DNA from: Escherichia coli | GTDB taxonomy: Bacteria > Pseudomonadota > Gammaproteobacteria > Enterobacterales > Enterobacteriaceae | Assembly: GCF_003334255.1 (NCBI RefSeq) | Contig: NZ_QOWU01000131.1 | DNA: 2,698 nt | Strand: one strand, 5' to 3' | In this document: piece after piece, positions 869 to 2,698 of the stretch | Layout of the letters: the number at the start of each line of letters is the position of its first letter | How positions within the stretch are numbered: the first letter of the stretch is position 1 | Translations under genes and position numbers: made by a program | The notes under the pieces: model-generated | What the model saw: the letters and a program-made list of their open reading frames with translations, nothing else | The model's database searches: none | What the model was told of the DNA's origin: nothing

Positions 869-1186
869 TCATCGCCCGGTTCTTGAGCTGATAATGCTTT
901 GCGTCAGCAGCTGCCAGCCCTCTTTCTGTTGCCCGTACTTGTCCTGATACCTGTTTACCTGCAAGTTTCCGTGCACCAGAATCAGATCGCCTTTTCTGTG
1001 TTTTGCCAGTTCTTCGTGCTGCTTCCCGAATGAAATAAGGTAAAGCCACATTGTGGTTGGCTGTTCTGCGCCATGGCAGGGTAGTGATACCGCCAGTTGT
1101 GCCGTTGTGACGTTGGTTCCTTTGGTTGTTCTCCTTGTGTTCGGGTCTGCTGCCAGTCGTCCATCTGTTGCAACCTGTGTTGGCAT
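869..1186 (-). CDS. single-stranded DNA-binding protein-like OB-fold protein, short form without C-terminal acidic tail
   Basis: ATG at 1186-1184 is preceded by GGGAGA (1197-1192); stop TGA at 871-869. The 105-aa translation aligns by eye with the OB-fold core of E. coli SSB recalled from memory: VATDGRLAADPNTRR against VILVGNLGQDPEVRY, and WLYLISFGKQHEELAKHRKGDLILVHGNLQVNRYQDKYGQQK against [43 protein letters not shown]. The protein ends right after the OB domain, with no Gly/Gln/Pro linker and no acidic DDDIPF-type tip. This is fold-level resemblance only and has not been searched. Confidence 0.6.
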   Translation of the reverse strand: MPTQVATDGRLAADPNTRRTTKGTNVTTAQLAVSLPCHGAEQPTTMWLYLISFGKQHEELAKHRKGDLILVHGNLQVNRYQDKYGQQKEGWQLLTQSIISSRTGR

Positions 1187-1218: not shown

Positions 1219-1557
1219 TTAGATGACTGGCAGCTCTTCGCCAGCGCCGTAGATAAACAGAATTCTCTTCATGATTTCGCTGCGCTTGCAGGCTTCAATT
1301 ACGGACGGCTCTTGTTGCCATTCTGCCCGTTGCGCCAGCTCCAGTCGTTCCTTTTCCGTTGGCTTCCGGTAATGCGTTATCTTGTCCGTGTACCCGTCCA
1401 CAACCAGCAGCCCTTCGCGTACCATCTTTCCGGCGGCCTGATTAATGATGGTCCTTTTCACGCCCAGTTTTTCAACCAGCTCTGGTGCGCTGAAGCGTGC
1501 GTGCGTTTCCAGGTAGCGTAAAATGATTACCTTTCCGGTCATTCTGGGTGTCTTCAT
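1219..1557 (-). CDS. putative winged-helix / HTH DNA-binding protein (hypothetical regulator)
   Basis: ATG at 1557-1555 is preceded by a perfect AAGGAG (1570-1565) with a 7-nt spacer, and overlaps the upstream stop as ATGA. Stop TAA at 1221-1219. The 112-aa product begins MKTPRMTGKVIILRYLE. The segment SAPELVEKLGVKRTIINQAAGKMVREGLLVV looks like an HTH recognition helix plus wing, as in Lrp/MarR-like regulators. The ORF track extends the frame to an ATG at 1626, but that start lacks an SD and lies inside the upstream gene. Confidence 0.65.
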   Translation of the reverse strand: MKTPRMTGKVIILRYLETHARFSAPELVEKLGVKRTIINQAAGKMVREGLLVVDGYTDKITHYRKPTEKERLELAQRAEWQQEPSVIEACKRSEIMKRILFIYGAGEELPVI

Positions 1558-1724
1558 TTGGCGGCTCCTTCGTTGTTCCGGCGTTCGCGGAGTTCGGTCA
1601 GTGCTGCCAGTAAATTTTCCCACCATGTTTCTTCCACAACCGGATTTCGTCGTGAAAGCAGCTGCTGCGCCGACTCAATCATTTTCGTAAGCTCTTTGTC
1701 GCTGATCCTCCTGATGTCGTTCAT
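1554..1724 (-). CDS. hypothetical small helical protein (56 aa)
   Basis: ATG at 1724-1722 is preceded by a perfect AAGGAG (1736-1731) with a 6-nt spacer. Stop TGA at 1556-1554 overlaps the start of the next gene (ATGA at 1557-1554), implying translational coupling. Product MNDIRRISDKELTKMIESAQQLLSRRNPVVEETWWENLLAALTELRERRNNEGAAK is charged and predicted helical. An alternative longer start at ATG 1763 has only a weak, distant SD. Confidence 0.55.
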   Translation of the reverse strand: MNDIRRISDKELTKMIESAQQLLSRRNPVVEETWWENLLAALTELRERRNNEGAAK

Positions 1725-1772
1725 GGTGTGCTCCTTCGGTTTGCTGTTTCTGGTCATGTTCATGGTCTTTTG

Positions 1773-2177
1773 TTACCTGCGTGATTGCCTGCTGGCGGCC
1801 GAATGCACATAGCGGACAATTGCCGCTTTTCGGTTAACGACGGCCAGCGTTCTTGCCAGTTCTTCGTTGAGTTTTCTGGTCTGTTTTTCGTGGTATGCCT
1901 GCATGATTTTTCCTACGGGAGTCAGTGGTTCAGGCTCTGATATGGCGCGACGAGGGCGCACGGCAACGATGAATGCGCTTCTGTCGGTGTTGGTTCTTGC
2001 AGTCAGGATGTCTGTCATGACGGTATCTGTGCTGCGATCGGGGTTTGCGATCGTGATCTCCAGTTCGTCGCCTGGCTGTGGTCGAACACTGACGCCGCTC
2101 AGCGTCAGTGCCGGAATGCGTCCACTCATGATGGCGCTGAAATCATGGCGCTGGAGTACACAATGGAATCGTGTCAT
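1773..2177 (-). CDS. hypothetical protein (134 aa)
   Basis: ATG at 2177-2175 is preceded by GGAGGTGA (minus strand, about 2192-2185) and overlaps the stop of the upstream ORF (ATGA at 2177-2174). Stop TAA at 1775-1773. Codon usage is consistent with the rest of the operon. I recognise no family. Confidence 0.65.
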   Translation of the reverse strand: MTRFHCVLQRHDFSAIMSGRIPALTLSGVSVRPQPGDELEITIANPDRSTDTVMTDILTARTNTDRSAFIVAVRPRRAISEPEPLTPVGKIMQAYHEKQTRKLNEELARTLAVVNRKAAIVRYVHSAASRQSRR

Positions 2178-2698
2178 GGGTTCACCTCCGGTTGATCTGC
2201 TGCCACCAGGCTTCGTGATTTCTCATCCCAGTGCACAATCCGCCCGTCAGGCAGGCGAACGCGTGCACCTCTGTGTACGGAAAGTGCTGCGCCACTGTGT
2301 AGCTCCTCGCCCGTCGCGCTCAGTGCCGACTTGATTACGGTGGTGGTGACGTCAGTCAGCGGCAATGCTGTACGCACATGTATGACGTCATCGGGTGTGG
2401 TGGGGCCGCCGGTTTTCACGGTTTTTGTGTCAGATGGCGCATCTTTCAGCTGCCTGGTGAGTTGTTTTCGCTCTGTGGGGGTCAGTGACCTTAACCACTC
2501 ACCCAAATCACCTCCCGGGACGACCAGTTTTTGTTCTTTCCTGGTTTCCGGTGGTGGGTTTTTACCCTCTCCGGTGTCTGTTTTTTCATCATGGGGACAG
2601 TTATTGCCACGAGTCCAAGGTGCGGCGAAGCCGCCCCCAACGTCAAAATCCTCGTCCGTGCTGTTGTCGGCTTTCGCTTCTTTTCTGACCAGTTTCCA
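2174..2698 (-). CDS. C-terminal part of a larger hypothetical protein, 5' end beyond the window; alternatively a 110-aa protein from internal TTG 2506
   Basis: I translated this minus-strand frame by hand from 2698 to the TGA at 2176-2174 and found no stop. Codon usage is enterobacterial-like (all Lys as AAA, Leu mostly CTG). The off-window N-terminal side is a Lys/Glu/Gly/Pro-rich segment (...DEDFDVGGGFAAPW...EKTDTGEGKNPPPETRKEQK...), followed by a ~110-aa C-terminal region. A TTG at 2506-2504 sits 4 nt after GGGAGGTGA (2516-2508), so an internal or alternative start is possible. The other minus frame, also open to the edge, is rich in rare Arg codons and was rejected. Confidence 0.55.
   Translation of the reverse strand, partial: WKLVRKEAKADNSTDEDFDVGGGFAAPWTRGNNCPHDEKTDTGEGKNPPPETRKEQKLVVPGGDLGEWLRSLTPTERKQLTRQLKDAPSDTKTVKTGGPTTPDDVIHVRTALPLTDVTTTVIKSALSATGEELHSGAALSVHRGARVRLPDGRIVHWDEKSRSLVAADQPEVNP

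Follow-up and report, generated by a model that had tools for sequence, protein, structure and literature searches.

The ren gene has been a named gene of phage lambda since 1980. In the lambda genome P spans 39582-40283 and ren 40280-40570, the two overlap by ATGA, and the Shine-Dalgarno (SD) sequence of ren, AAAGGAG, lies in the final P codons. P2-like phages replicate by gpA-initiated rolling circle and not by O and P. For lambda, the supplement to Thomason et al. (2021, 10.1101/2021.04.19.439022) describes O, P and ren as overlapping and co-translated, and the same work cites Weigel & Seitz (2006) for the observation that ren accompanies initiator-helicase-loader modules. It also cites Toothman & Herskowitz (1980), in whose work heteroimmune lambda ren mutants grew poorly on Rex+ lysogens and suppressors mapped to O and P (via 10.1101/2021.04.19.439022). 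Bacterial two-hybrid (BACTH) interactions of Ren with both RexA and RexB are reported there (10.1101/2021.04.19.439022). RexB and Ren were also scored as a pair by yeast two-hybrid, from a single vector pair and with Ren scoring against several unrelated baits as well (Rajagopala et al. 2011, PMC3224144). In P2-like phages, the interval between gpA and gpQ is a hotspot of genetic variation, which in P2 holds old and tin; many defence systems occur in this hotspot (Rousset et al. 2022, PMC9122126). A protein central to the present analysis, WP_001537149, is entered as 'hypothetical' in the hotspot arrangements of the supplementary table to that study (Rousset et al. 2022, PMC9122126).

The 2,698-nt stretch of DNA analysed here (hereafter the window) comes from a P2-like E. 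coli prophage, in which it forms the interval from gpA to the portal gene. It takes in the distal part of the early (replication) operon and the beginning of the gpA-gpQ hotspot. Over its full length it is 97-99% identical to 22 complete E. coli chromosomes. Its features are as follows.

2174-2698, leaving the window, minus strand: C-terminal part of gpA, a P2-type replication endonuclease of 837 aa (annotation; tblastn 98.9% over residues 664-837)
1773-2177, minus strand: 134-aa hypothetical protein, phrog_14984, whose start shares ATGA with the gpA stop
1731-1736, minus strand: AAGGAG SD ahead of ATG 1724, equal to codons K-E if the ORF begins at 1763
1554-1724, minus strand: small helix-loop-helix protein, 56 aa (69 aa from ATG 1763; phrog_14672, AF2 model)
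1565-1570, minus strand: AAGGAG SD of the ren-like gene, within the final codons of the small ORF
1219-1557, minus strand: Ren-family winged-helix protein, 112 aa, WP_001537149 (phrog_142, BLASTP against lambda Ren, AF2 model)
1219-1578, minus strand: portable ren cassette, 360 nt, made up of the last 8 small-ORF codons, the SD, the ATGA and the ren ORF
869-1186, minus strand: SSB-like protein, OB fold only, 105 aa (TIGR00621, E 2.6e-12; phrog_44)
834-859 (hairpin) and 819-828 (U-run), minus strand: putative terminator of the early operon (dG -18.7 kcal/mol, z -4.2)
283-819 (longest ORF from 175), plus strand: 178-aa membrane-like protein, hydrophobic in stretches of the N-terminal half

Read along the minus strand, gpA is thus followed by the 134-aa gene, the small helical gene, the Ren-like gene, the SSB-like gene and a terminator-like hairpin, with the portal gene Q beyond the left edge of the window. 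In NZ_CP116067, which is 99.3% identical to the window, the flanks are a 'replication endonuclease' on one side and portal, terminase and P2-family capsid genes on the other. The prophage concerned is P2-like and integrated beside dmsA, and its gene set includes a P2-family capsid, GPO scaffold, gpM, terminase, portal, tail protein X, an integrase and the 'replication endonuclease'. A search of the window for the P2 cos sequence, allowing up to 3 mismatches, gave no match. Only the last 174 codons of gpA are contained in the window; a 110-aa ORF (2174-2506, minus strand) is not a gene in its own right but the C-terminal end of this 837-aa protein. The stop codon of gpA and the start of the 134-aa gene share an ATGA (2174-2177) with an SD of GGAGGTG, and therefore 4-nt overlaps are the norm in this early operon. 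Wherever the context is complete within this E. coli clade, the 134-aa gene lies 5′ of the small gene (59-99% identity). Its product had no significant match in Pfam or NCBIfam, and tblastn against 50,697 phage records returned none.

The 112-aa protein carries the RefSeq label 'MarR family transcriptional regulator'. By sequence comparison, it belongs to the lambda Ren family and is not a bona fide MarR protein. It matches phrog_142, 'Ren-like exclusion protein', with an E value of 1.1e-28 (residues 3-108 on profile positions 8-112 of 116), and BLASTP against lambda Ren (NP_040633) gives 42% identity over the full length (E 2e-24). A tblastn search of 50,697 deposited phage records found matches in 170, all below 60% identity; among the matches listed, the annotated targets were ren genes and the carriers lambdoid phages of Escherichia, Klebsiella and Enterobacter. 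No P2-like ren was found among these records. An alignment of 13 Ren sequences contains 14 invariant columns, and the motifs MTGK..I..YL.TH, INQAA.KM.R.GLL, YR..T..E and C..S..MKR.L are conserved with lambda Ren. The best-conserved part is the recognition-helix segment TxINQAAxKMxRxGLL, in which 12/17 residues are identical to lambda Ren against 42% overall, although this helix 3 diverges in the farther Ren relatives of CobraSix and Louie. Both proteins are about 100 aa long and are encoded by early genes 3′ of replication genes. The present protein extends beyond lambda Ren by 5 residues at the N-terminus, and its C-terminal region is longer. Its start at 1557 is supported by relatives that have Ile in place of Met6 (MKTPRITGK).

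The AF2 model of the 112-aa protein (pLDDT 83) is a winged helix-turn-helix (wHTH) of H-B-H-H-B-B topology followed by three short C-terminal helices, its elements being H8-16, E21-23, H24-31, H35-47 and a wing formed by E52-57 and E60-64. The original prediction had proposed a wHTH fold from the sequence alone, and both this model and the MarR_2 profile bear it out. It had also recognised neither protein of the pair as a named family, which no longer holds for the wHTH protein given its place among the Ren proteins. A PDB sequence search revealed no solved Ren relative, the only matches being weak ones to wHTH proteins (LrpA, E 0.015).

The limits of the ren gene as a mobile unit are seen by comparing related prophages. 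In seven independent ren-less relatives, DNA homology to the window ends exactly at 1579, which is 25 nt before the stop of the small ORF. In three relatives that have ren and lack the SSB-like gene, homology is lost at 1214-1223 and resumes at ~205, whilst one relative is colinear with the window down to 877. The breakpoints at 1579 and ~1219 thus define 1219-1578 as a single-gene cassette. The cassette supplies the tail of the small ORF, namely NNEGAAK and the stop codon. Small proteins from ren-less alleles do not have NNEGAAK and end seven residues earlier, in ELRERRQQ; in these alleles the small gene is followed by a 73-nt gap and then by an unrelated gene. In a minimal arrangement in GCA_026106675.1 (locus L118, 2381-3656), gpA, the 134-aa gene, the 56-aa gene and a Ren-like gene of 108 aa are followed directly by ogr and portal, the ren cassette being the sole cargo of the hotspot.

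The cassette also brings its own translational coupling device, as is the case at the lambda P/ren junction. The original prediction had called a stop/start overlap at 1557-1554 and a perfect AAGGAG before each ORF, and the sequence agrees on both counts. The ATG (1557-1555) and the TGA (1556-1554) on the minus strand share the tetranucleotide ATGA, and the AAGGAG motifs are at 1570-1565, 7 nt from ATG 1557, and at 1736-1731, 6 nt from ATG 1724. AAGGAG is found three times in the window against 1.2 expected by chance, a count that is not significant by itself; two of the three sites are at proper SD spacing. Both ORFs are intact in 33 complete E. coli genomes (82-99.8% DNA identity) and also in IMG/VR contigs. 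Together with the ATGA and SD architecture, this upholds the view of two real, translationally coupled genes within one operon. A scan for promoter-like or terminator-like sites between the genes on the minus strand found none, and Rfam together with the promoter and terminator scan gave nothing relevant within 1219-1772.

The same junction recurs across the Ren family. In phage Turner the gene upstream is a P homologue; the start of ren overlaps the stop of that gene, whose closing codons contain the ren SD. The arrangement is repeated after DnaC-like loaders in Louie (GTGA) and RCIP0034 and after DnaB-like helicases in CobraSix and RCIP0114. In IMG/VR, all 48 distinct contexts (48/48) in which ren follows a lambda-P-type gene have the 4-nt overlap. 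Across the contexts sampled, an overlap with an SD is therefore general to ren cassettes whatever gene lies upstream and is not evidence of a two-protein partnership. Of two traits of the Ren family, translational coupling to the preceding gene of an early or replication operon is present here, but the position right after a helicase loader or helicase is not, as gpA, the 134-aa gene and the 56-aa gene precede ren. Thus the locus resembles lambda in the overlap and in the placing of the SD, but the host phage is P2-like and has gpA as its rolling-circle initiator in place of an O/P-type initiator-helicase-loader module, the upstream gene encodes a 56-aa helical protein instead of a helicase loader or helicase, and the gene sits in a variable hotspot where only some relatives carry it.

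The small protein matches phrog_14672 along its whole length (E 5.6e-35, residues 1-56 on profile positions 1-56). Its AF2 model (pLDDT 85) is a helix-loop-helix with helices at residues 9-24 and 32-55, and this helical hairpin confirms the earlier description of the protein as helical. An exhaustive search of 1.84 billion representatives with the phrog_14672 family HMM recovered 24 proteins at E <= 1e-3, with the common motif ISDxxLxxM..A..ML...SP..D.EWW..LL...ELQERR. Close relatives of the gene are always located behind gpA and the 134-aa gene, whether or not ren is present. Farther relatives are found directly after gpA in other P2-like phages, where both the 134-aa gene and ren are absent, and 3′ of O-like or DnaC-like replication genes in lambdoid prophages. 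In addition, they appear as a module joined to further domains, whether Ead/Ea22-like, DUF551 or other uncharacterised ones; in the lambdoid-phage mosaic early proteins of the Ead/Ea22-like and DUF551 kinds the module forms the C- or N-terminal part, whereas here it is a stand-alone ORF behind a replication initiator. The protein is a helical hairpin module of ~50 residues common 3′ of replication genes in temperate enterobacterial phages, and its gene closes the series of conserved early genes that follow gpA, ahead of the hotspot.

Other searches with the 56-aa protein were negative. Pfam and NCBIfam gave nothing significant, PADLOC gave no match, tblastn against 50,697 phage records gave zero matches, and a PDB sequence search returned only noise from designed helical proteins. 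In a Foldseek search of the PDB with the model all E values were above 2, which is uninformative for a helical hairpin. The idea that the protein is a remnant of a loader was rejected, there being no similarity to the C-terminus of lambda P (E 0.61), and a 165-aa protein (P0083), examined as a possible fusion of the small protein with Ren, proved to be a C-terminal read-through. The start of the small gene is ambiguous. Many gene callers choose ATG 1763 (69 aa), and in relatives with Thr, Ile or Val instead of the internal Met the start is necessarily upstream. For this allele the sequence favours ATG 1724 because of its perfect SD. The 48-nt gap that had been described after the 134-aa gene (from 1773 to ATG 1724) is accordingly correct for this start and becomes 9 nt with ATG 1763.

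With this in mind, we considered whether the two genes belong together. A true functional pair would have the small protein as co-factor, modulator or adaptor of the Ren-like protein, in place of P or a helicase loader, with coupling matching the amounts of the two. The 4-nt overlap and strong SD would suit such a pair, as would the location of both families 3′ of replication genes in unrelated phage types and the finding that, in all P2-like contexts sampled, the Ren-like gene is directly 3′ of the small gene. However, coupling is generic to ren regardless of the upstream gene, and constant adjacency follows from the position of the small gene, with which the conserved part of the operon ends and behind which the hotspot begins. 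Moreover, each gene is found without the other. The small gene occurs without a Ren-like gene in 5/38 complete E. coli genomes, in 5 IMG/VR contigs and in 13/13 contexts of distant relatives, and Ren occurs without the small gene in all of the 80 other fetched loci with a Ren-family match (80/80), which were lambdoid wherever examined. No Ren-family gene was detected in the fetched loci of distant small-protein relatives (HMM, E <= 1e-3), and the immediate neighbours in four distant-relative loci had no Ren PHROG match. The recombination breakpoint at 1579, too, falls between the genes. We therefore regard a functional pair as improbable, and the two genes do not form a conserved co-occurring unit. 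Of the refuting conditions set out with the original prediction, that of homologues not found together thus largely applies, the exception being this E. coli P2-like clade, in which ren always lies directly behind the small gene and the distribution by itself does not argue against a specific partnership. As the small gene occurs without Ren and also as a fused module, the pair is a juxtaposition of separate modules and not a co-inherited two-protein system. The same observations bear on a toxin-antitoxin-like or anti-repressor module, which had also been proposed. Its appeal lies just in the generic image of two small overlapping genes, one with a DNA-binding fold, and it is scarcely credible here: either gene occurs alone, the breakpoint separates them, no promoter of their own was found, and they are not inherited as an autonomous unit. 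No toxin-antitoxin or defence family was found for either protein in NCBIfam, Pfam, PHROGs or PADLOC, and a genuine toxin-antitoxin-like pair elsewhere in a related hotspot (a TumE-family protein with an HVO_A0114-family protein) looks different.

The remaining alternatives concern the 112-aa protein and its cassette. An ordinary MarR/GntR-type transcription factor, binding operator DNA and regulating phage or hotspot genes, would share with this protein the H-B-H-H-B-B topology of the wHTH core, and there are matches to MarR_2 (PF12802, i-E 3.6e-5, 24 bits, wHTH core only), GntR (E 1.8e-3) and phrog_1687 'MarR family' (E 4e-10). Foldseek with the model likewise returned generic wHTH regulators only (ArsR/MarR/TFE winged helices), with ArsR/MarR regulators at the top of the list. 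However, the Pfam MarR and GntR matches are limited to residues 8-55, the weak MarR_2 match being what the RefSeq label is based on; MarR itself (PF01047) gives E 0.17, and full-length similarity is to Ren. MarR proteins are about 140-160 aa long, with N- and C-terminal helices that form a dimer interface around the wHTH. In the 112-aa protein the wHTH begins at residue 8 and the N-terminal dimerisation helix is absent, and it is on these grounds that we do not take it for a bona fide MarR protein. Structures of MarR proteins in the PDB superpose on the model with an rmsd of 13-17 Å over the full length. An effector domain and the genomic setting of a regulator are lacking as well: there is no divergent promoter/operator layout, and the gene lies mid-operon without a promoter-like site. 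A transcription factor of this type is therefore unlikely. Less likely still, in our estimate, is a role in defence or exclusion, in which the cassette would be expressed from the prophage, as are old and tin, and would block the replication of incoming lambdoid phages. It does lie at the same locus as old, tin and the many other defence systems among the gpA-gpQ cargo, shows the same modular swapping of cassettes (Rousset et al. 2022), and lies close to an SSB-like gene whose product has no tail and to a membrane-protein gene of low GC content. Against this, PADLOC gave no match above noise (best, a generic winged-helix model, E 7.6e-4), and the gene reads in the same direction as gpA, is tied to the early operon by its coupling, and has no separate promoter that the scan could find. 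The old and tin cargo is prophage-expressed defence, whereas the ren cassette is translationally fused to an early lytic operon and is similar to a gene working on behalf of its carrier phage, as the lambda homologue is described as doing by Thomason et al. (10.1101/2021.04.19.439022).

We therefore favour, at a probability of about 60%, the reading of the locus as a Ren-family cassette in a P2-like early operon that acts against RexAB-type exclusion. From its homology to lambda Ren, the Ren-like protein is likely to be an early replication accessory that counters such exclusion. Of the roles first suggested for the pair, that of a replication-initiator accessory came close, for the wHTH protein and not for its small neighbour. 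The small protein may, at a guess from its position, be an accessory to replication or host takeover. With no promoter-like or terminator-like site found between the genes, we infer that the Ren-like gene would be co-transcribed with gpA from the early promoter in lytic growth, and its translation would be coupled to that of the small gene just upstream. Its target would not be phage-specific and may be RexA/RexB-type abortive-infection proteins or a replication intermediate that these sense. As a result, a resident lambdoid prophage would be prevented from aborting replication of the phage. The conservation of the recognition-helix segment above all others fits a target common to unrelated phages better than a phage-specific operator. 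On the other side, the suppressors in O and P suggest that lambda Ren acts through these proteins, and if it does, the same role is less readily assigned in a phage that replicates by gpA. The hotspot, moreover, is known for prophage-expressed defence and not for counter-defence genes. The mechanism is itself carried over by homology from lambda Ren at 42% identity.

The Ren family is already known, and what is new here is a mobile ren cassette in a P2-like gpA phage, outside the initiator-helicase-loader context; in other aspects the locus is ordinary phage operon architecture. A Ren homologue in a phage that replicates by gpA rolling circle means that the family is not tied to an O/P-type replication module, and it offers a simple test of action on Rex or the host versus action on O/P. 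It also corrects the database label 'MarR family transcriptional regulator', and provides an example of a single-gene cassette that imports its own translational-coupling signal into a phage hotspot. A bolder and doubtful extension is that Ren is a portable counter-defence cassette against RexAB-type abortive infection, independent of the replication system and, thanks to the coupling signal it carries, pluggable behind any early gene, with the phrog_14672 hairpin perhaps its partner or sensor target in P2-like phages. If so, a Ren system could here be studied for the first time independently of lambda O/P.

Lastly, the rest of the hotspot is itself mosaic. Sharp breakpoints relative to related prophages, at ~205, ~877, ~1219 and 1579, mark cassette edges in the gpA-gpQ hotspot. 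The presence or absence of the SSB-like cassette is independent of ren, and the SSB-like gene occupies the hotspot where P2 carries tin. Full-length SSBs are about 165 aa, and the SSB-like protein, at 105 aa, is too short for their C-terminal tail. In NZ_AP045172 (locus L005, 2625-3373), a TumE-family toxin-antitoxin protein and an HVO_A0114-family DNA-binding protein replace the SSB-like gene directly after the ren cassette. Between the convergent SSB-like and membrane-protein genes, the minus strand of 819-859 holds a 10-bp GC-rich hairpin followed by UUUCUUUUUU. This hairpin, which a simple terminator scan overlooked, probably terminates the early operon. The 178-aa gene beyond it has a GC content of 38-43% against 50-60% around it, is convergent with the early operon and adjoins the cos/portal side of the hotspot. 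PADLOC gave no match for its product, and only the C-terminal 90 aa match phrog_1416, a family of unknown function; the gene is a candidate prophage-expressed moron. Positions 1-205 of the window are conserved again and form its cos-proximal side.
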